64,000 bases of DNA from Burkholderiales bacterium (GCA_041558415.1 JBFFEY010000001.1:89630-153629), one strand, 5' to 3'; positions 4,864 through 54,943 are shown, counted from the first letter of the stretch. Notes: generated by a model from the letters alone, not told the origin. Translations and numbers: made by a program.

Positions 4864-6345
4864 ATGACCACGGAACAGACCACTGCGGTGACCATCGCCG
4901 CGGAGAACGCTTGGAAGGGGAAAGTCTTTTCCGGGCGCTGGATGATGCCGAAGGGCGGCTCGCGCGAAGTGATCGAGCCGGCCACCGGCAACGTGCTGAC
5001 CGAGGTCGGCATCGCCGACGCAGAGGACGTGCGCGAGGCGGCGGCGACGGCCAAGGCGGCGCAGATCGAATGGGCGAACACGCCGGCCGATCAGCGTGCC
5101 GCGGTGCTGCGCCGCGCCGCGCAGTTTCTCGAAGCGCAGAGCGACACGCTGCGCCCCTGGATCATGCGCGAAACTGGCGGCATCGCGCCCAAGGCCGACA
5201 AGGAGCTGCATTTTGCGACCGAGATCCTGATCGAGGCGGCGGCGATTGCGACCCAGCCGCCCGGCGTGATGCTGCCCTCCGGACCGAAGCGCATGAGCTT
5301 CGCGCGGCGCGTGCCGCACGGCGTGGTTGGCGTCATCTCGCCGTTCAACTTCCCGCTGATCCTGTCGACGCGTGCGGTCGCGCCGGCGCTGGCGCTCGGC
5401 AACGCGGTCATCCTCAAGCCCGATCCGCAGACGCCGGTGACCGGCGGCTTCATCCTGGCGCGTATTTTCGAGGCGGCCGGGCTGCCCGCGGGCCTGCTGC
5501 ACGTCCTGCCGGGCGGCGCGCAGACCGGCGAGGCGATCGTCAGCGACCCGGACATCGCCATGATCTCGTTCACCGGCTCGACCGCGGCCGGGCGGCGCGT
5601 CGGCGAGCTGGCGAGCAAGCACCTGAAGAAGGTGACGCTCGAACTCGGCGGCAAGAATTCGACCATCGTGCTGGACGACGCCGACCTCGATGTCGCCGCG
5701 TCCTGCGTCGCCTGGGGCGCTTATCTGCACCAGGGGCAGATCTGCATGGCGACGGGCAACGTCTACGCGCATCGCAGTATTGCGCGCGACCTCACCGAGC
5801 GCCTGGTGCGCAAGGCCAAGCACCTGCCGGTGGGCGATCCGACCAGCGGCAAGGTGGCGCTGGGGCCGCTGATCAACGCGCAGCAGCTCGAGCGGGTCGA
5901 CGGCATCGTCCGCGACGCGGTGGCCAAGGGCGCGGTGCTGCGCGCCGGCGGCGAGCACGAGAACCTGTTCTACAAGCCGACCGTGCTGGAGGAAGTGCGA
6001 CCGGGCATGCGCGTGCTGGAGGAGGAGGTGTTCGGGCCGGTGGTGGCGATCGTGGCCTTCGATTCCGACGACGAGGCGATCGCGATGAACAATGCCTCGC
6101 AGTACGGCCTGTCGACCGGCGTGATCACCACCTCGCTCGAGCGCGCGATGAGCTTCACCGCGCGCCTCACGACCGGCATCATCCACGTCAACGACCAGAC
6201 CGTCGGCGACGAACCCTGGGTACCGTTCGGCGGCACCGGCGCCTCCGGCAACGGCGGCCGGCATGGCGGCGTCGCCAACTGGGAGGAGTTCACCCAGTGG
6301 CAGTGGGTGACGATGCAAGACAAGGCGACGCCGTTCCCCTTCTGA
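4864..6345 (+). CDS. NAD(P)-dependent aldehyde dehydrogenase (benzaldehyde / aromatic-aldehyde dehydrogenase-like)
   Basis: ATG at 4864 lies 7 nt after AAGGAGG. ALDH motifs ELGGKNS and the catalytic-Cys context GQICMATG are present. N-terminus ...AWKGKVFSGRW resembles aromatic ALDHs. Confidence 0.85.
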   Translation: MTTEQTTAVTIAAENAWKGKVFSGRWMMPKGGSREVIEPATGNVLTEVGIADAEDVREAAATAKAAQIEWANTPADQRAAVLRRAAQFLEAQSDTLRPWIMRETGGIAPKADKELHFATEILIEAAAIATQPPGVMLPSGPKRMSFARRVPHGVVGVISPFNFPLILSTRAVAPALALGNAVILKPDPQTPVTGGFILARIFEAAGLPAGLLHVLPGGAQTGEAIVSDPDIAMISFTGSTAAGRRVGELASKHLKKVTLELGGKNSTIVLDDADLDVAASCVAWGAYLHQGQICMATGNVYAHRSIARDLTERLVRKAKHLPVGDPTSGKVALGPLINAQQLERVDGIVRDAVAKGAVLRAGGEHENLFYKPTVLEEVRPGMRVLEEEVFGPVVAIVAFDSDDEAIAMNNASQYGLSTGVITTSLERAMSFTARLTTGIIHVNDQTVGDEPWVPFGGTGASGNGGRHGGVANWEEFTQWQWVTMQDKATPFPF

Positions 6346-23210: not shown

Positions 23211-23286
23211 GGGTCGTTAGCTCAGCTGGTAGAGCAGCGGACTTTTAATCCGTTGGTCGGCGGTTCGAATCCGCCACGACCTACCA
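23211..23286 (+). tRNA. tRNA-Lys (anticodon UUU)
   Basis: 76-nt cloverleaf read by hand. Acceptor GGGTCGT/ACGACCT, anticodon arm GCGGA-CTTTTAA-TCCGT, T arm GGCGG-TTCGAAT-CCGCC, encoded CCA. Confidence 0.95.
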
Positions 23287-23295
23287 AATGCCGAA

Positions 23296-23322
23296 GGCCC
23301 CAGCGGTTGCTGGGGCCTTTTT
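23296..23322 (+). terminator. Rho-independent terminator after tRNA-Lys
   Basis: GGCCCCAGC-GGTT-GCTGGGGCC followed by TTTTT. Confidence 0.75.
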
Positions 23323-23442
23323 CCTTCTGCTTCAACCCGCTGCCTCCGATCGGCACCCGCCTCGGCGCGGCCGCAGTCTCTCTGCAGCATGTGCATCGGT
23401 GCCGTGTCGCGCGCTGGAGGCACTGGCCGCCAGAGTGAGGTT

Positions 23443-23470: not shown

Positions 23471-23599
23471 GCTGCTTGTACGCGGTGCCGGAATCCGGTA
23501 TCCCACTCTAAAAGAAGGGTGTCGGCCGCGCGTCTCTCGGCTCTTGTGAGACGCTCGGTAACCGGCGCACGACAAACCGACAACCAGGAGGAGGCTGCC

Positions 23600-26595: not shown

Positions 26596-27330
26596 ATGCA
26601 GAACCAGGAAGGCAAGAAAGTCCCACAGGTCACGTTCCGCATCCGCGTGAACAACGACTGGACCAGCATCTCGAGCGACGACATCTTCAAGGGCAAGACG
26701 GTGGTGGTGTTCTCGCTGCCGGGCGCATTCACCCCGACCTGCTCGTCGACGCACCTGCCGCGCTACAACGAGCTCGCGCCGGCGTTCCGCGCCAACGGCG
26801 TCGATGCCATCGTCTGCGTCTCGGTCAACGACCCCTTCGTCATGAACGAGTGGGCCAAGGATCAGGACGCCGACCAGGTCATGCTGCTGCCGGACGGCAA
26901 CGGCGAATTCACCGAAAAGATGGGCATGCTGGTCGACAAGGCCGATCTCGGCTTCGGCAAGCGCGCGTGGCGCTATTCGATGCTGGTGAAGGACGGCGTT
27001 GTCGAAAAGATGTTCATCGAGCCGCAGAAGCCGGGCGACCCCTTCGAAGTGTCGGACGCCGACACCATGCTCGCCTACATCAACCCGCGGGCAAAGAAGC
27101 CCGATCAGGTGGCCATCCTGACGCGCGAGGGCTGCAGCTACTGCGCCAAGGCGAAGGCGCTGCTCGAGGAACTCGGCTATGCCTACGCCGAAATTCCGCT
27201 CGAGCACCGCACGCGCAGTCGCGCCGTCGGCGCCATCACCGGCCAGGGCACCGTGCCGCAGGTCTTCATCAACGGCAGGCACATCGGTGACTGGGAAGCC
27301 CTAGAGCACTGGGCGAAGAAGGCCACGTAG
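26596..27330 (+). CDS. Hybrid peroxiredoxin (Prx5-type) / glutaredoxin
   Basis: ATG at 26596. PGAFTPTCS peroxidatic-Cys motif and a C-terminal Grx domain with CSYC and TVPQVFI. 244 aa. Confidence 0.88.
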   Translation: MQNQEGKKVPQVTFRIRVNNDWTSISSDDIFKGKTVVVFSLPGAFTPTCSSTHLPRYNELAPAFRANGVDAIVCVSVNDPFVMNEWAKDQDADQVMLLPDGNGEFTEKMGMLVDKADLGFGKRAWRYSMLVKDGVVEKMFIEPQKPGDPFEVSDADTMLAYINPRAKKPDQVAILTREGCSYCAKAKALLEELGYAYAEIPLEHRTRSRAVGAITGQGTVPQVFINGRHIGDWEALEHWAKKAT

Positions 27331-27376
27331 CGGCTCGAAATCAAGCACTTACCCTCCGCCGCGGCGCGCAGTACCG

Positions 27377-27410
27377 GGGCCGGGCTCGATCGCCCGGCCC
27401 TTTTTCGTTT
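27377..27410 (+). terminator. Rho-independent terminator after the peroxiredoxin gene
   Basis: GGGCCGGGC-TCGATC-GCCCGGCCC followed by TTTTTCGTTT. Confidence 0.75.
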
Positions 27411-27513
27411 CGCCGGCGGTCGGTGAACCGGCGTCGCGCGAGGAATTAGAATCGCACCCTCGGACGCAGCCGTGGCTGGCGGTCCCATCGCAACCCAAAG
27501 GGGAGGAGAAGTC

Positions 27514-33537: not shown

Positions 33538-34530
33538 TCAGCCGCCCGCGGTGAAGCCTCGTGCGTACACGGACTCCAGCCGGTCGACGACCTCCGCCGG
33601 CAGGGGCCCCTGGGCCTCGGCCGCGATGACTTCCTCGAGGTGCGTCGGCTCACCGAGACCGACGACGAAGCAGGCGAAATCCGGATGCGCGAGGGCAAAG
33701 CGCAGCGCCGTCTGCGCGCGCGTGCCGTGCCCGGGGCCGAGCGCAGCGAGCGCGGCATGGGCGCGCTGCGTCTCGACGTCGAGCGCGCTTTTCTCGGTGA
33801 GCACCATCTCGCGCCCGTGACGCAGGTCGGTGGCGAGCACGCCGGAGGCGAAAACCCGGATGCCCATCATCGCCACGTCGTGCCGCGCGCAGGCGGCCGC
33901 CACGCCGGAAAAACGGTGCCCGCTCCAGCCGACCGGCATGATGCGCGCCGCGCTCGGGTTGAGCAGGTTGTAGTACACCTGCGCCGAGTCGAAGCGTCCG
34001 CTGTCGAGCGCGCGGACGATCGCCGTCGCCTCGCCCAGCGCGGTCAGCCCGATGAAACGCGTCAGGCCTTCTTTACGCATGCGCTCGAGGCCGTCGGCGA
34101 CGCCGCCCTTGCGCAGCACGTCCTCGACGCTGATGGCGCCCAGCACCCCGCTGCCGGTGCGCGCGCCGATCTGGTTGTGCAGCTGCAGCAGGTCCACCGA
34201 GTCGCGCTTCAGGCGGCGCAGGCTCTCATGCACGCTGCGCTCGATGGTGCCCGGGATGTCCGACAAGTCGTTTAGGTCGAGCCGCACCTTGGTCGAGAGG
34301 TAAGGCTTGTCCTCGACCTCGGCGAGCAGCCAGCCGAGCGCTTCCTCCGAGCGACCCTGGCCGTACAGCGGCGCGGTGTCGATCCAGTTGATGCCGGCGT
34401 CTAGCGCACGGCGCAGCACGCGGCGGCGCGTGTCGTCGTCGGCGAGGATGATGACGCCGCCGACGTAGCCGCCGCCGAACACGACCTGCGAGACCTTGAG
34501 GCCGGTGCGGCCGAACCGCCGATATTTCAT
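33538..34530 (-). CDS. Aldo/keto reductase family oxidoreductase
   Basis: MKYRRFGRTGLKVSQVVFGGG..., IDTAPLYGQGRSEE, LLQLHN: classic AKR blocks. 330 aa. Confidence 0.88.
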   Translation of the reverse strand: MKYRRFGRTGLKVSQVVFGGGYVGGVIILADDDTRRRVLRRALDAGINWIDTAPLYGQGRSEEALGWLLAEVEDKPYLSTKVRLDLNDLSDIPGTIERSVHESLRRLKRDSVDLLQLHNQIGARTGSGVLGAISVEDVLRKGGVADGLERMRKEGLTRFIGLTALGEATAIVRALDSGRFDSAQVYYNLLNPSAARIMPVGWSGHRFSGVAAACARHDVAMMGIRVFASGVLATDLRHGREMVLTEKSALDVETQRAHAALAALGPGHGTRAQTALRFALAHPDFACFVVGLGEPTHLEEVIAAEAQGPLPAEVVDRLESVYARGFTAGG

Positions 34531-34689
34531 GGACTCCCTTCCTTCAAGCGCTCACCATTAAATTTATATGTTTTAGTTCAATAACTTAATACTTTTTAAC
34601 GACGTTGCAGATCAACAACAACGAGCATCCCATTAATTAAACAAGGTAAATGGATGTTGACAGGGTGGCGCGACAAGCGCATTCTAGAG

Positions 34690-34810
34690 TCACTTTCCAG
34701 CGGCTCACCAAGAAGGCCGCGGAAACTGCCCGAAGTACCCTCCTCCTCCTCCTCTCGGGCTCCTCGGCAGAGACTGGCCCCTGGCAATAACCAGGGGCTT
34801 TCTTTTTTCT
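34690..34810 (+). ncRNA. Candidate small RNA (or leader) with an anti-Shine-Dalgarno CCU-repeat loop
   Basis: TTGACA at 34657-34662 with a weak -10 about 17-18 nt downstream. Hairpin 34700-34720. Hairpin 34728-34760 (GCCCGA/TCGGGC) has the loop AGUACCCUCCUCCUCCUCCUC. Strong terminator at 34777-34810. No credible ORF. The 5' end is approximate. Confidence 0.5.
34777..34810 (+). terminator. Rho-independent terminator of the candidate sRNA
   Basis: 8-bp stem GCCCCTGG/CCAGGGGC with loop CAATAA, followed by TTTCTTTTTTCT. Confidence 0.8.
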
Positions 34811-34931
34811 GCCCGCGGGTCAGACGAGCCGAGCGCGAACGCCGTGCAGCCGTCCGCGGCGACTGCATCGTGCGCCGGTTCTCGGGGGACTCGGTAGACT
34901 TTGCGCCTCAGCCCAAACGAGGAGTCGGACC

Positions 34932-35402
34932 ATGCGCGTTTTTCTGATCCTGGGGATCGCCGGTGCTCTGGTTTTGCTGTCGATCCCGTCACAGGCTCAA
35001 ATGGGCGGCCGCGGCATGATGCAGGGTGGCGGCATGATGGGCGGCCCCATGGCGCGTCACCGCATGGCGATGCACGGCGGCCTGCCTTCGGAATACGCCT
35101 CGAAGAAGAACCCGCTCAAGGCATCGGCGGACAACGTGGCCGCGGGCAAGGCGCTTTTCACGCAGAACTGTGCCGTCTGCCATGGCGCGAAAGGTGCGGG
35201 CGACGGCGAGGGCGGCAAGGCGCTCAACCCGCCGCCAGGCGACTTGCGCGGCCTGAGCCGCATGCCCATGGCGGGCGACGCGTTTTACTACTGGACGATC
35301 GCCGAGGGCGGCGCACCGGTGAAGAGCGCGATGCCGCCCTACAAGTCGGTGCTCAAGGAAGACGACATCTGGAGGCTGGTGCACTACCTGCGCACGCTGT
35401 GA
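34932..35402 (+). CDS. Monoheme c-type cytochrome with a Met/Gly-rich N-terminal segment
   Basis: ATG after GAGGAG. Signal peptide ...LLSIPSQA/QM. Mature N-terminus MGGRGMMQGGGMMGGPMARHRMAMHGG. Heme motif CAVCH with a distal MPPY. Confidence 0.85.
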   Translation: MRVFLILGIAGALVLLSIPSQAQMGGRGMMQGGGMMGGPMARHRMAMHGGLPSEYASKKNPLKASADNVAAGKALFTQNCAVCHGAKGAGDGEGGKALNPPPGDLRGLSRMPMAGDAFYYWTIAEGGAPVKSAMPPYKSVLKEDDIWRLVHYLRTL

Positions 35403-35472: not shown

Positions 35473-36693
35473 CTGCGCCTTTTCAGTGTCGGCTCGCTGG
35501 TGCTCGCCACTGCGCTGCTGCCGGCGATGGCCGTCGGCGAGGAGACCGTCACGCCCGAGCAGCAGCAAGCGCGCAAGCGCGAGGCCGAGGCGTCGGAGGA
35601 CCCGCTCAAGCAGCGCCAGGCGGAGAAGGTCGACCGTCCGGATCTGTGGAGCGACGAGCCGAGCGGCGTTGACCTGTACGGCAGCGTGCGGTTGCGTTAC
35701 CGCAAGGCGGGCGGCGACACGGTGCTCGGCGACGGCGGCTCGCGCATCGGACTGGAGGCCAACTGGCAGTACCGCCCGCAAAGCTGGCTGCATGGTCGCG
35801 TCGAGGCGGGCTTCAACGTGCTCGATGCTTTCGACCGCGTGTTCAGTCCAGGCAGCCGCGGCGCAAGCGATGCTGCATTGATCACGCCGCGACTCTATTA
35901 CGCCGGCGTGGAAACCCCCAGGCTGATCGCGTCGTTCGGCAAGATATGGTCGACCTACTACCAGGTCACCGCCTTTACCGATTTGTTCGACAGTACCGGC
36001 GGCAGCGCATCGGGTACCTACAACGCACAGACCGACGGCGGCCCGAGCGGCACCGGACGCGCCGATTCGGTGTTGCAGACGCGCCTCACGGTCGACTGGT
36101 TCCCGGATTCGTTTCACGTCAAGCCGTTCGACATGAACGTGCAGTTGCAGTACGAGCGAAAGATTCCGAATGTCGAGGGCGCGCGCTACGGTCTCGCGCT
36201 CGGCATGAGCGCGGTGTTCAAGACGAAGGATGACACCGAGGTCGGCTTCGCCTACAACTACGCCGACGTGCGCGACGAGAACGCGCCCGCGGTGTCCGCG
36301 GCCGGCATCGACGGCGACGACCATGCGCTCGCGATCGCCGCGCGCCGCATCAGCGATCGCTGGTACCTGGCGAGCACCGTCGCGCGGCTGCTCAACCACG
36401 AGACCACCGACCAGAAGCTGTATGTCGATGCCTGGGGCTGGGAGCTGTACGCCCGCTACCGCCTGTTCGGCAAGCTGTGGGCGGTGGGCGGCTGGAACTG
36501 GCTCAAGCCCGATCGCGGACAGCCGCTCGCCGGGCTGTACCGTGTGAAATACGGCGTGCTTGGCCTGCGTTACTCGATCAAGGAGTTCCGCCGCCTCGTT
36601 TACCTCGAAGCGCGCTACGACAAGAGCCGCAACGCGGACGGTTCGCCGATCGGCGATAGTGCGGCCTTCGGCATCCGGTGGGATTTCGATTGA
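35473..36693 (+). CDS. Outer-membrane beta-barrel porin-like protein
   Basis: Alternating beta-strand pattern with Tyr/Gly-rich turns, ending ...AAFGIRWDFD. A charged coiled-coil-like segment follows the signal peptide. Start uncertain: CTG 35473 gives (M)RLFSVGSLVLATALLPAMA/VG, while GTG 35500 gives a truncated signal. Confidence 0.65.
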   Translation: MRLFSVGSLVLATALLPAMAVGEETVTPEQQQARKREAEASEDPLKQRQAEKVDRPDLWSDEPSGVDLYGSVRLRYRKAGGDTVLGDGGSRIGLEANWQYRPQSWLHGRVEAGFNVLDAFDRVFSPGSRGASDAALITPRLYYAGVETPRLIASFGKIWSTYYQVTAFTDLFDSTGGSASGTYNAQTDGGPSGTGRADSVLQTRLTVDWFPDSFHVKPFDMNVQLQYERKIPNVEGARYGLALGMSAVFKTKDDTEVGFAYNYADVRDENAPAVSAAGIDGDDHALAIAARRISDRWYLASTVARLLNHETTDQKLYVDAWGWELYARYRLFGKLWAVGGWNWLKPDRGQPLAGLYRVKYGVLGLRYSIKEFRRLVYLEARYDKSRNADGSPIGDSAAFGIRWDFD

Positions 36694-37319
36694 GAGCGTT
36701 GGATCGATCAGCACGAGACTCGCCGTCGCGCACACGACGCACCTGTGGCGGCGGGGCGCCTGGGCGATTCACTACAACGCGTCCATGTTGCGCTCACTCG
36801 TTGCGATACCGCTCCCGGACGCGCATCCTGACTGCCAGCGGGCACGACGAGGATCAGCGCATTCACGCCGAGCCCTGTCACATTCGCGCCGACCGCCGCG
36901 CGCAGGCGATGCCGTGAATGGGCTCCTGTCGCGGTGGCCTCGCCCACGGTCGTGGCGTAATGCTGCTCGACAAAACCCGGGCGCACCGCCAGACCGACGA
37001 CGGTGGCAAGCGCGGGGACCGGGCCAGTGAGACAGTCAGCTGGATGCCCGATGGCCGATGCTTCTGGGCGCGCCGCGCATTGCCCCGCACGGTGTCGAAG
37101 ACCCAAACGCCCGGCCGGAGTATGTGTTCGCGTGGGCGCGAGCCGTTCTTGCGCCGCGCGGCAGATGCTGCTGAACTGCCGCCGGTCCCATGGGTAACCG
37201 CCGAACCGAGACGCGATCGCCGGGCCCGAGTTGTTCTGGATCGATACTTCGTCATACCCTAACGCGACTCGCGATGCCGATCTGAGAGGAGTTCGGCACG
37301 GGACGGAGGAGACAGGTCG

Positions 37320-40145
37320 ATGGGAAGCCTGCGGATGCGGATAGCGATACTGGGACTTGCGCTTGCGGCGGCGCTCGCTGCGGCACCAGCCCATGCGGAG
37401 TGCGGTGGCTCCACGCAGTGCATCGCGATCGGACTGACGCCGGGCGACGCGGCGGTTGCGCACCACGGCGGACCGGCGCCAGCGACGCCGACCATGGCGT
37501 TCGGCAACCAGGTCACCGCGACGACCAGCGCGTCGCGGACGCTGTACGTCGCAGCGGTCCAGGGCGGTGTGGGAATGGCGACGCTCGGTCCGATCACGAT
37601 CACCGGAACGAACGCGGCGGAATTCACCGTCACCGGTGGCAGCTGCTCGACGACCAATGGGCCGGTGCACGGTGGGGCGAACTGTACGATTACGGTCGCA
37701 TTTGCGCCGACGAGCCTCGGCGCGAAGGATGCGACGCTGAACGTCCCGTTGAATCCGCCGCCCGGCTGCGGCGGCTGCATCACCGGCCGCACGGCGATGC
37801 TCACCGGAACCGGCGTCGATCCGCTGCCAGCGGCCTCGCCCGCAACGCTGACGACGGCGATAGGCACGCCGGCGACGCTCGATCTCGCGCCTTTCATCTC
37901 CGGCGCCAACCTGCTCGGGATCCGCATCACCGTGCCTCCGGGGAACGGCAGCGTGAGCGTGAGCGGCACGCGCGTGACCTACACGCCGAATGCCAATTAC
38001 GTCGGCAGCGATACGTTCTTCTACGAATCGTTCAACGCGATCACTGCGTCGGCGCCTGCTGCGGTGAGCGTGTCAGTGGGCAGTCGCGCCGACCCATCAG
38101 ACGATCCAAACGTCACTGGTCTGCTCGGCGCGCAGATCGCGACGGCGCGGCGCTTTTGGCGCGCGCAGATCTTCAATTTCCAGCGGCGCATGGAATCGCT
38201 CCACCGGAGTGCGCCGGCGCCTCGATCCGAGGATGGCGCGCGGCTCGCAAGTAATGCTGGGGTGGCGACGCAGCCGCCGACGATGACCGACGCGGGCAGC
38301 GGGATCGTCCCGACGTCGCTCCTGGCGCCGCTGTTGAGTGCGGCGAACACGCGCTCCCTCAGGCTGTCCAGCAGCGGCGACGGCGGCGACGGTGCGTCGC
38401 CACTGCCGCCGGGGACCGGGATCTGGATCGCAGGTAACGTCAGCTTCGGCAACCGCGATCAGGGGAGTGCGAGTGGTGGATCGCGCTTTAGCACCGACGG
38501 CATCAGTGTCGGCATCGACCGTCGTTTGAACTCGGCGCTCGCGCTCGGCGTCGGCCTCGGCTATGCGCGCGACGAGACCTCGATTGGGCTCGACGGAACG
38601 CGCAGCAAGGCGCGCGGCTGGTCGATCGCGGCCTACGGCAGCTACCAGCCCTTCGCCGATGCCTATGTCGATGGCCTGCTCGGCTACGGGGAGACGACCT
38701 ACGACAGCGTACGCTACGTTGCCGCGGCCAACGATTACGCTTCGGGCACGCGCAAGGGGCGGCAGCTCTTCGCCTCCCTCGCTGCGGGCTATGAGTTCCA
38801 TCGCAACGGCGTGCTGCTGTCACCCTATGCAAGACTCGACTACGCGAGCGATCGGCTCGGCGCGTTTACGGAAATCGGCGCCGGGCTGAATGCGCTGCGC
38901 TACTCGGGCCAGACGCTGCCGTCGCTGCAGCTTGGCGCGGGCGTGCGTGTCGAGTCGGTGCACGCGACGAACTTCGGTTGGGTGCGGCCGCGGCTACGTC
39001 TCGAATACCGGCACGACTTCGAGGGTGCGCGTGCAGCCACCGTGCGTTACGCCGACCAGTTCGCCGGCCCGACTTATTCCGTCACGCCGGCGGGACTGGA
39101 TCGCGATGCGCTCGTGCTCGGGATCGGCGGCGATTTCGTCTTGCGCCGTGGCTGGCAGCTGGGCATCGACTACCAGACCCAGTATCAATCGGGCCTCGAC
39201 AGCGCGCAAGCGATCCGCTTCTGGGTTGCGGCGGATCCGGAGGCGACCGCATCGCCACTCGGGTCGGTCGCATCGTCCACGCTGCTGGAAGATCCGGTGC
39301 GCGTCGAGGCGGGCTACGTTTTCGATGACAACGTCAACCGGGCGCGCAGCGCCGACCAGCTTTCGGATCACGTCTACAGCGCAAATGTGGCCAAAAGCAC
39401 GGTCATTCCGCTCACCGAGAATACACGCGCGATCCTGCGCGGCTTTGTCGGTGGCGAGAAGCTGCATAGGTTCTCGGGTCTCGATCACCTCACGGCCGGC
39501 GCGTACGGCGAATTCCAGTATCGCGCGTCGGGCGATATCGATGCACCGACTTTCGGCGTCTTCGGGCGCGCGGCCTACGAAGGTTACAGCTCTAGCCTAC
39601 GCGACGGGTTTCGCTACACGCTCGGCGTGAACGCGCGACAGGCAGTTACCGACCGTCTGGAGTTGTTCGGCGCGCTCGATGCCCGCTGGCGCAGCGCGCG
39701 CAATACGGTGTTCGATGGCACCGATTGGGGGGCGCGGCTCAATCTCGACGTTTCCTTCGACTGGGAGGGCACGCTTTACCTGGGCGGCGAGTATCGGCGC
39801 GGCGATGCCGTATCGAGCGGGCCACCGACGCAGGACAGCGCATCGATCGCGAAATCGCTGGTACCGGACGACGCCTATCCAGGCCGCCGATTGTTCGCAT
39901 ATCGCTTCGACGCGGAAACGGTTCTGTGGACCCTGGGCTACAACTGGCCGCTCGGGCCGCGCGACTCGATCGATTTCTCCTGGCGCAACGTTCGCTCGAC
40001 CGCGACGCAACAGCCGAGCGCGGCTCCCGGCGGAGTCTACGCGGGGCCGCCGAGCTACTATGGCGTCACGCTCGCGCCCGGCACGGGCGGTACGCAACGC
40101 TACCGCGTCAACCAGTTCTCACTCGTCTACTTGATGCGCTTCTAG
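37320..40145 (+). CDS. Autotransporter-like outer-membrane protein with Ig-like passenger repeats and an additional C-terminal barrel-like module
   Basis: ATG after GGAGGAG. Signal peptide MGSLRMRIAILGLALAAALAAAPAHA/EC. Passenger has Ig-like segments (TITGTNAAEFTVTGGSC...CTITVAFAPTSLGAKDATLNV; VSVSGTRVTYTPNANYVGSDTFFYES). Autotransporter beta-domain-like region (GIWIAGNVSFGN...AIRFW). A further roughly 300 aa ends in ...FSLVYLMRF. Confidence 0.75.
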   Translation: MGSLRMRIAILGLALAAALAAAPAHAECGGSTQCIAIGLTPGDAAVAHHGGPAPATPTMAFGNQVTATTSASRTLYVAAVQGGVGMATLGPITITGTNAAEFTVTGGSCSTTNGPVHGGANCTITVAFAPTSLGAKDATLNVPLNPPPGCGGCITGRTAMLTGTGVDPLPAASPATLTTAIGTPATLDLAPFISGANLLGIRITVPPGNGSVSVSGTRVTYTPNANYVGSDTFFYESFNAITASAPAAVSVSVGSRADPSDDPNVTGLLGAQIATARRFWRAQIFNFQRRMESLHRSAPAPRSEDGARLASNAGVATQPPTMTDAGSGIVPTSLLAPLLSAANTRSLRLSSSGDGGDGASPLPPGTGIWIAGNVSFGNRDQGSASGGSRFSTDGISVGIDRRLNSALALGVGLGYARDETSIGLDGTRSKARGWSIAAYGSYQPFADAYVDGLLGYGETTYDSVRYVAAANDYASGTRKGRQLFASLAAGYEFHRNGVLLSPYARLDYASDRLGAFTEIGAGLNALRYSGQTLPSLQLGAGVRVESVHATNFGWVRPRLRLEYRHDFEGARAATVRYADQFAGPTYSVTPAGLDRDALVLGIGGDFVLRRGWQLGIDYQTQYQSGLDSAQAIRFWVAADPEATASPLGSVASSTLLEDPVRVEAGYVFDDNVNRARSADQLSDHVYSANVAKSTVIPLTENTRAILRGFVGGEKLHRFSGLDHLTAGAYGEFQYRASGDIDAPTFGVFGRAAYEGYSSSLRDGFRYTLGVNARQAVTDRLELFGALDARWRSARNTVFDGTDWGARLNLDVSFDWEGTLYLGGEYRRGDAVSSGPPTQDSASIAKSLVPDDAYPGRRLFAYRFDAETVLWTLGYNWPLGPRDSIDFSWRNVRSTATQQPSAAPGGVYAGPPSYYGVTLAPGTGGTQRYRVNQFSLVYLMRF

Positions 40146-54869: not shown

Positions 54870-54943
54870 GCGGGTGTAGTTCAATGGCAGAACAACAGCT
54901 TCCCAAGCTGTGAACGTGGGTTCGATTCCCATCACCCGCTCCA
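54870..54943 (+). tRNA. tRNA-Gly (anticodon CCC)
   Basis: 74-nt cloverleaf read by hand. Acceptor GCGGGTG/CACCCGC, anticodon arm ACAGC-TTCCCAA-GCTGT, T loop TTCGATT, encoded CCA. TAAAAT at 54853-54858 with a GC-rich discriminator lies upstream. Confidence 0.93.

Follow-up and report, generated by a model that had tools for sequence, protein, structure and literature searches.

The C/U motifs of the RF02278 and ar14 small RNAs (sRNAs) are described as anti-Shine-Dalgarno sequences (PMC5688073, PMC4615179, PMC10746234). In Burkholderia cenocepacia, RF02278 is represented by the double-hairpin RNAs ncS03, ncS05, ncS27, and ncS62, which are 57–92 nucleotides (nt) long (PMC4603805, PMC5688073). 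These RNAs were named for their toxicity when cloned into E. coli (PMC5688073, PMC4603805), and each Burkholderia genome carries three to five copies (PMC5688073). NcS27, with 92 nt, exceeds the other family members in length and undergoes processing to a short form; growth is slower when it is overexpressed, and ribosome-binding sites are covered by its CU-rich region (PMC5688073). Furthermore, NcS27 co-regulates carbon-source use (PMC10987360). The cuckoo family comprises ar14 (RF02344), NfeR1, and CcsR/RSs0680 of Alphaproteobacteria (PMC4615179, PMC10746234, PMC8034643), and the anti-Shine-Dalgarno loops of cuckoo/ar14 RNAs have been described (PMC4615179, PMC10746234). A cuckoo RNA is defined by two to four hairpins in adjacent positions, all of which carry CCUCCUCCC in the loop, and a screen of 2,680 genomes identified members in 78 Alphaproteobacteria only (PMC4615179). 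The known mode of action is the multi-target repression of transporter mRNAs (PMC4615179, PMC10746234, PMC8034643). Here, we compare with these systems a candidate sRNA gene with a CCU-repeat loop, which is located at 34692-34808 (+) in a stretch of 64,000 nt from a Burkholderiales bacterium (GCA_041558415.1 JBFFEY010000001.1:89630-153629; the window). C-rich unpaired loop motifs that pair with the G-rich ribosome-binding sites of several mRNAs also occur in RsaE/RoxS of Firmicutes and in the 6C RNA of Actinobacteria; the sequences and hosts of these RNAs are unrelated to the element, and their motifs are of the CCCC-type and contain no trinucleotide repeat.

With moderate confidence, we interpret the element as an independently transcribed, trans-acting regulatory sRNA of ~117 nt. 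It resembles both families in design, and its mode of action may be similar; it is filed in neither of them.

Anatomy and conservation of the intergenic element

The aldo/keto reductase (AKR) gene (33538-34530, -) and the cytochrome c gene (34932-35402, +) are separated by a gap of 401 bp, and the element lies in this gap, as reported by a first-pass annotation of the window. That annotation had also placed a TTGACA box, a 5-bp hairpin, a hairpin with a CCU loop, and a terminator there, and direct reading located every one of them. For comparison, nine distinct variants of the element were collected from related metagenome-assembled genomes (MAGs) and metagenomes; six of them were used for the alignment of the upstream and promoter region, and eight were folded.

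The predicted transcript spans 34692-34808 (+). Its 5' end was deduced from the -10 box and its 3' end lies in the U-tract; the conserved block starts near the former and stops at the latter. Hairpin 1 (34695-34724, UUCC-A-GCGGC/GCCGC-GGAA) contains a core of 5 bp, in which GCGGC (34700-34704) pairs with GCCGC (34716-34720), spanning 34700-34720. In its loop, sequence and length differ between variants in the 5' half; the 3' half contains the motif AAGAAGG (34710-34716), which is invariant in all variants. Hairpin 2 (34728-34760) is formed by GCCCGA (34728-34733) and UCGGGC (34755-34760), and it exposes a 21-nt loop with the sequence AGTACCCTCCTCCTCCTCCTC (34734-34754; AGUACCCUCCUCCUCCUCCUC as RNA). 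The final 17 nt of the loop are the C/U tract CCCUCCUCCUCCUCCUC (34738-34754), which is the proposed anti-Shine-Dalgarno seed. The program TRF (Tandem Repeats Finder) reports (CCT)5.3 at 34739-34754, and the mean unpaired probability of the tract is 0.70–0.93 in the eight folded variants. A second, shorter C/U motif, UCCUC (34761-34765), is located between hairpin 2 and the terminator. The Rho-independent terminator (34776-34808) was identified by a terminator scan. It has a stem of nine pairs, seven of them G-C (GGCCCCTGG/CCAGGGGCT, 34776-34799, followed by TTCTTTTTT), a loop of 6 nt, and the tail UUCUUUUUU; the stem is invariant, the loop is variable, and the U-tract is retained. The 128-nt stretch has a folding energy of -49.7 kcal/mol (z = -2.70), and two of 200 shuffled sequences fold as well. 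Just 5' of the terminator hairpin, an invariant AGAGA (34770-34774) is predicted to pair with the U-tract (34800-34808). The lone C of the U-tract does not occupy the same position in all variants (UUUCUUUU versus UUUUUCUUU), and one G-C pair with AGAGA is retained. According to the fold, this pairing may extend the terminator stem.

The TTGACA box at 34657-34662, which had been annotated at exactly this position, is invariant in all nine variants and corresponds to a -35 box. It is followed at a distance of 17 nt by a weak -10 box, CATTCT (34680-34685, consensus nAT[T/C]CT). The spacer comprises exactly 17 nt in all nine variants, and its sequence is almost unconserved. The predicted promoter is thus supported by conservation with a classic sigma-70-type footprint, and the conserved layout of -35 box, 17-nt spacer, and -10 box was used to place the start near 34692. 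Further upstream, at 34598-34656 (approximately -94 to -36 from the predicted start), the conserved blocks ...AACGACGTTGCAGATCAACAACA... and GCATCCCATTAATTAAACAAGGTAAA contain many invariant columns in the six-sequence alignment. The two blocks read AACGACGTTGnAnnTCAACAACA and CATCyCATTAATTAAacaaGGTAAA, the second of which includes the palindrome TTAATTAA. They are probably a regulator-binding or UP-like region of the sRNA promoter, or are shared with the divergent AKR promoter. Regulator sites within them may serve the sRNA or the divergent AKR/GBBH-like_N/radical-SAM operon.

Conservation begins ~95 nt upstream of the start and breaks down beyond the U-tract. The identity to the homologs is 81–92% for the sRNA versus 26–67% for the downstream spacer. 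This pattern has to be compared with what is expected if the gap encodes no functional RNA and harbors DNA-level elements, such as regulator sites of the divergent AKR operon, together with a stray terminator. In that case, the conservation upstream of the -35 box could be due to the AKR promoter. However, the conserved block continues for 150 nt further away from AKR and stops precisely at the U-tract, in both hairpin 1 and the terminator the loop is variable and the stem constant, and the promoter layout is directed into the element. Moreover, the changes in the stems maintain pairing in a strand-specific manner. An origin of the pattern at the DNA level is therefore considered very unlikely.

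The element could be assigned to the plus strand because only this strand has a U-tract (the opposite strand has none) and because the observed C-G to U-G changes would give A-C mismatches in an RNA from the complementary strand. Indels of 1 nt occur among the homologs at three places, of which the first is the linker behind hairpin 1, the second the beginning of the C/U tract, and the third the stretch ahead of the terminator. These indels break the frame; therefore, there is no conserved reading frame and a small protein is excluded. A Pfam search with the overlapping open reading frames (ORFs) gave no match either, which bears out the earlier judgement that the overlying ORF (34654..34947) is non-coding.

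The C/U tract comprises four or five CCU units (14–17 nt) depending on the lineage, and the loop accordingly has 18–21 nt; in two variants, the tract starts with ACC instead of ACCC. In contrast, the second C/U motif is not conserved: four of the nine variants (L092, L096, L104, and L122) have CUUCUC or CUUCUA in place of CUCCUC. This decay argues for the repeat loop as the conserved functional motif. The first-pass annotation had considered the (TCC)n run possibly prone to slippage. At least 23 public contigs encode an identical cytochrome c protein, and seven of these, including MAG GCA_035458905.1, were fetched. In these seven independent assemblies of the same population the intergenic region is identical and all contain (CCT)5. 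The tract differs only between lineages, and neither slippage as an active process nor phase variation in the present population could be upheld.

It had also been suggested that the element is a terminator-based leader of the cytochrome c gene. On this reading, transcripts starting from TTGACA would usually end at the terminator, and expression of the gene, whose start is ~122 nt 3' of the terminator in the window, would be set by regulated read-through. The terminator is indeed located upstream of the cytochrome c gene, and in all nine variants the element adjoins this gene in the same orientation. However, the distance between terminator and start varies from 116 to 418 nt across the loci, with the low identity of the spacer given above, and in L088 an ORF is called on the opposite strand of the spacer. 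Inspection of the folds revealed no antiterminator pairing for either arm of the terminator, and the Rfam scans gave no match to a riboswitch or leader family. Furthermore, all orthologous gaps contain a separate conserved box, CTCGGTAGACTT (34890-34901, +), with a -10-like TAGACT ~30 nt before the cytochrome c start. This box lies outside the sRNA and is probably the promoter of the cytochrome c gene itself. Given the variable, unconserved spacer and the promoter-like box, a leader function is disfavored and regarded as unlikely. In some relatives, the spacer is expanded to ~220–420 nt. The ORF in L088 (2092-2289, -) encodes 65 residues and has no Pfam match; the equivalent stretch of L001 is located at ~2790-2990. 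As judged from its sequence, the L088 ORF may be a gene remnant.

RNAalifold, applied to the aligned orthologous intergenic regions as the first-pass annotation had proposed, returned a consensus consisting of hairpin 1, hairpin 2 with the CCU loop, and the terminator. Hairpin 1 is the only helix with covariation; it contains one compensatory pair (G-C versus A-U in two versus six sequences). By manual count, three pairs change from C-G to U-G, and the RNAalifold consensus adds a fourth pair that alternates between U-G and C-G. A failure to find hairpin and loop in related genomes had been named beforehand as a possible refutation; the element is conserved in nine variants, and both the hairpins and the CCU loop are part of the consensus fold. 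In summary, the comparative data favor a discrete plus-strand gene with its own predicted promoter and terminator and an exposed CCU loop, in agreement with the initial proposal of a candidate sRNA.

Distribution and relation to known families

Distant relatives were sought by three routes, which were a genome scan, the inspection of cytochrome c homologs with 68–82% identity, and a DNA-pattern scan of metagenomes. All nine variants have a common synteny: radical SAM, GBBH-like_N (PF06155), and AKR in leftward orientation, followed by the sRNA and cytochrome c in rightward orientation. The genome scan with the cytochrome c protein identified the element only in L001 ('Betaproteobacteria bacterium SG8_39'). 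In L002-L005, whose cytochrome c is 48–57% identical, neither the AKR neighbor nor the sRNA was found, and in L120 and L121 (cytochrome c identity 66%) the element is absent and the synteny is gone. AKR homologs with 70–82% identity reside in unrelated contexts that lack the sRNA. The metagenome scan with CCTCCTCCTC-N4-14-YCTNGGCAGAGAC yielded 12 stretches, five of which are true homologs, all in the same context; the remaining ones were rejected as microsatellites or chance matches in coding sequence. A blastn search of the PLSDB plasmids with the sRNA, aimed at Burkholderia and Ralstonia megaplasmids, gave only chance matches of 23–25 nt.

A covariance model of the element (R1) scores 135 bits at the window element and 124–143 bits in the homologs. 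With filters switched off, R1 detected no second copy in the 64-kb window and 90 other loci. Three further candidates from the window were discarded. The R1 match at 23241-23327 overlaps a tRNA and a terminator, and the CCTCCTCCTCC match at 6018-6028 (-) is located inside an aldehyde dehydrogenase gene. The R1 match at 27303-27410 (+; 18.8 bits) was rejected as a paralog; it consists of the 3' end of a gene and a terminator, with a chance GAAGAAGG and CCCUCC. In this region, the gene ends at 27330, and GAAGAAGG and UACCCUCCGCC precede a strong terminator (27376-27401) just upstream of a dctP-like gene. The match was judged to be due to chance; an RNA derived from the 3'-untranslated region would be the alternative. 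The host belongs to the Betaproteobacteria/Burkholderiales, the nearest genome being 'Betaproteobacteria bacterium SG8_39' and the nearest proteins being from 'Burkholderiales bacterium'. Within reach of the searches made, the element thus appears to be a single-locus, single-copy gene that is confined to one SG8-39-like clade of Burkholderiales.

At gathering thresholds, Rfam assigned only two tRNAs in the whole window and no family to the element. The first-pass annotation had pointed to RNAs of the cuckoo type and a betaproteobacterial family of toxic sRNAs. As leads these resemblances proved useful, since the two best sub-threshold matches of the Rfam scan are RF02278 and ar14. RF02278 is the top permissive match, with 25.0 bits compared to a cut-off of 50, and L088 reaches 24.9 bits; for the other variants no RF02278 match is listed even at E <= 10. 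For ar14 (RF02344), the scores are 18.3–23.3 bits across the variants compared to a cut-off of 58.8. The weaker permissive matches include mmgR (RF00519, listed as suhB) and BjrC68, and the best sub-threshold matches are all C/U-rich sRNA families. Membership in RF02278 or cuckoo/ar14 was not sustained, given that both scores fall well short of the curated thresholds (25 of 50 and 18–23 of 58.8 bits) and that the features defining a cuckoo RNA are absent. Both Rfam matches reflect a shared design and not membership.

The likeness to RF02278 includes the betaproteobacterial host, a short RNA with a predicted promoter of its own and an intrinsic terminator, and a full-length but weak alignment to the model. 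Moreover, a longer member with a 5' extension exists in the form of the 92-nt NcS27. In contrast, the element has three hairpins and ~117 nt, whereas three of the four members from B. cenocepacia have two hairpins and 57–67 nt. Its main motif is a perfect (CCU)4-5 in a hairpin loop of 18–21 nt, whereas RF02278 has a short single-stranded CUCCUCC at the 5' end. Further differences are that the second C/U motif of the element is not conserved and that the element, as far as searched, is a single copy at one syntenic locus.

The element might still be a divergent true member of RF02278 with a 5' extension that, like the 92-nt NcS27, is processed to a short form; in the case of the element, this form would comprise the CCU tract as a single strand, a small hairpin displaying UCCUC, and the terminator. 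This is a question of classification, and such a membership is compatible with the mechanism that we favor. The RF02278 match covers the full 64-position model (34746-34805, E = 0.0064 in a search of 461 nt), the host is Burkholderiales-like, and the processing of a longer RNA to a short form has the precedent of NcS27 (PMC5688073). An RF02278-like fold can also be drawn, in which the alternative hairpin UCUCGGGC/GGCAGAGA makes six of eight pairs and UCCUC (34761-34765) forms the loop. However, this fold is 4.6–5 kcal/mol less stable than the fold with hairpin 2 in all eight variants, and the motif in its loop is not kept (UUCUC or UUCUA in four variants). The match reaches half of the cut-off, the E-value rises to 0.44 when 30 kb are searched, and among the matches listed there are only two variants, namely those with (CCU)5 and CUCCUC. 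No second copy was found in the 64 kb searched, compared to the several copies of a Burkholderia genome, and a C/U motif plus terminator is generic and can arise by convergence. We therefore regard membership in RF02278 as possible but doubtful.

With the cuckoo RNAs the element has in common adjacent hairpins followed by a terminator, an anti-Shine-Dalgarno motif of the CCUCCUCC-type in a hairpin loop, and a full-length, weak alignment to the ar14 model. Like NfeR1, it has a predicted sigma-70-type promoter with a conserved upstream stretch. Unlike the cuckoo RNAs, it contains the C/U motif in one hairpin loop only, the other loop being characterized by the purine-rich AAGAAGG. The run is CCCUCCUCCUCC(UCC)UC, i.e. 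(CCU)n, and the exact 9-mer that defines the cuckoo loops is absent. Furthermore, the host is betaproteobacterial and there is no neighboring DUF1127 gene.

Proposed mode of action

For the favored reading, i.e. a trans-acting sRNA, the following course of events is proposed. The RNA would be transcribed from the sigma-70-type promoter (TTGACA, 17 nt, CATTCT), probably in dependence on the conserved upstream sites, and transcription would halt at the strong intrinsic terminator. The RNA would fold into three hairpins, the middle one presenting the 14–17-nt (CCU)n tract in a large open loop. This tract would pair with the GGAGG-type Shine-Dalgarno sequences of a set of mRNAs, preferentially those with extended GGAGGAGG-like sites. 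Pairing would block binding of the 30S subunit and thus repress translation; the mRNA might be destabilized as well. The 3' U-tail and the invariant AAGAAG loop motif would be likely aids as contacts of Hfq. AAGAAGG has the form (ARN)2, which is suggestive of a site for the distal face of Hfq.

A crude scan of the 64 kb identified several window genes whose start codons are preceded, at Shine-Dalgarno distance, by perfect complementarity of at least 7 nt. As pointed out by the first-pass annotation, the loop is complementary to AGGAGG-type ribosome-binding sites. The sites found include the 9-nt AGGAGGAGG (23586-23594), 5 nt before the ATG of a molybdopterin oxidoreductase (Mo-oxidoreductase) gene, and sites before the genes of a DctP-type solute-binding protein (27502-27508) and of an autotransporter (37305-37311). 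Further sites with perfect matches of 7–9 nt precede the start codons of aldehyde dehydrogenase, SDR, and AsmA-family protein genes. The element thus combines an intergenic predicted promoter, a terminator, and non-coding status with an accessible C/U seed complementary to ribosome-binding sites, as expected for the generic class of trans-acting anti-Shine-Dalgarno sRNAs. The two tRNA genes identified by Rfam are located at 23211-23283 and 54870-54940 (+), the first of them ~300 nt upstream of the Mo-oxidoreductase gene with AGGAGGAGG.

A number of observations weigh against this interpretation. A consensus promoter scan calls no promoter at the locus, because the -10 box CATTCT fits the consensus in just three of six positions. 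The CCU run by itself is not improbable in a window that is G+C-rich: there are five window matches to the 11-mer with at most one mismatch, compared to 1.1 expected, and two of 100 shuffles reach five. The relatives are fairly close, the DNA of the AKR genes being 81–86% identical. Covariation is minimal. A control with 500 shuffles was unimpressive, with 29/500 for the covariation score and 251/500 for the count of pairs in which both sides had changed. As no change was seen in the stems of hairpin 2 and of the terminator, their structure rests on thermodynamics and invariance. Because all six pairs of hairpin 2 are invariant, covariation neither supports nor contradicts this hairpin. Furthermore, the minimum free energy folds of single sequences contain a competing lower stem, in which CUGCC (34726-34730) pairs with GGCAG (34766-34770). 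The evidence for targets is weak and unspecific, because any Shine-Dalgarno sequence complements CCUCC, and the start regions of the neighboring cytochrome c and AKR genes contain no conserved extended complementarity. Finally, we infer transcription, the exact 5' end, the role of Hfq, the targets, and the repressive outcome by analogy to NcS27 and the other Burkholderia double-hairpin RNAs and to the cuckoo/ar14 RNAs. The main weaknesses are thus the almost complete lack of covariation and a target logic that is only generic.

The element is nevertheless lifted above chance by the combination of its features and their conservation in nine variants, and not by the CCU run alone. Likewise, the modeled structure is supported by thermodynamics, by invariance against a saturated neighborhood, and by variable loops on constant stems, and not by covariation statistics.

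The length and repetitiveness of the tract (14–17 nt), which are unusual and allow pairing with Shine-Dalgarno sequences in several registers, are also relevant to the question of whether there is a defined target set at all. The RNA might instead be a general brake or sponge, either as a 16S rRNA 3'-end mimic by which many mRNAs are titrated in growth arrest, or as a decoy for a protein binding C/U-rich RNA. The toxicity of cloned RF02278 RNAs in E. coli and the global slowing of growth by NcS27 would be in line with a brake. However, NcS27 and NfeR1, which are relatives by design, have defined target sets, and the idea is not separable here from ordinary multi-target regulation; we consider it quite unlikely. 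A more specific proposal, which is unlikely as well, is that the perfect (CCU)4-5 repeat constitutes a multi-register anti-Shine-Dalgarno platform that mimics the 16S rRNA 3' end and acts as a lineage-specific global translation brake. If this were true, almost every strong Shine-Dalgarno sequence would be a possible partner of the RNA in several frames, or two such sequences might be bound together, and evolution would have adjusted the strength of the platform through the number of repeat units gained or lost (four versus five between lineages). The invariant, Shine-Dalgarno-like AAGAAGG loop could then be a built-in partner or an Hfq switch. The RNA would act as a global brake instead of as a regulator of a few mRNAs, as assumed in the ordinary case.

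Neighborhood and significance of the element

In the window, the cytochrome c gene is followed by the gene of a 397-residue protein (35500-36693) and by that of a 941-residue autotransporter (37320-40145). The former had been labeled a porin; the label found no support in Pfam, where the protein has no match. In the relatives L088, L092, L096, and L100, whose cytochrome c is 68–82% identical, a DegP-like Trypsin/PDZ protease gene and a convergent RelA/SpoT gene are found at this place. The pair in the window therefore looks like a lineage-specific insertion or replacement.

As the underlying mechanism is well known, the finding is incremental. What is added is an sRNA family that had not been annotated and is undetected by any Rfam model at threshold. 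The clade consists of uncultured Burkholderiales related to SG8-39, which are known from metagenome assemblies only, e.g. from MAGs of estuarine sediment and soil; the literature and database searches made here turned up no regulatory RNA from it. The distinctive traits of the element are the single large loop with a perfect trinucleotide repeat and the restriction to one uncultured clade. Together with the covariance model R1, the alignment of the nine variants provides a seed for the annotation of these MAGs and for target prediction. If the element could be linked to RF02278 via intermediates, that family would be widened and an origin of the short double-hairpin form would be suggested. 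The anti-Shine-Dalgarno motif in a hairpin loop, which is familiar from the cuckoo RNAs of Alphaproteobacteria and from the Burkholderia double-hairpin RNAs, recurs here in a third form, that of one large loop consisting of a perfect trinucleotide repeat.

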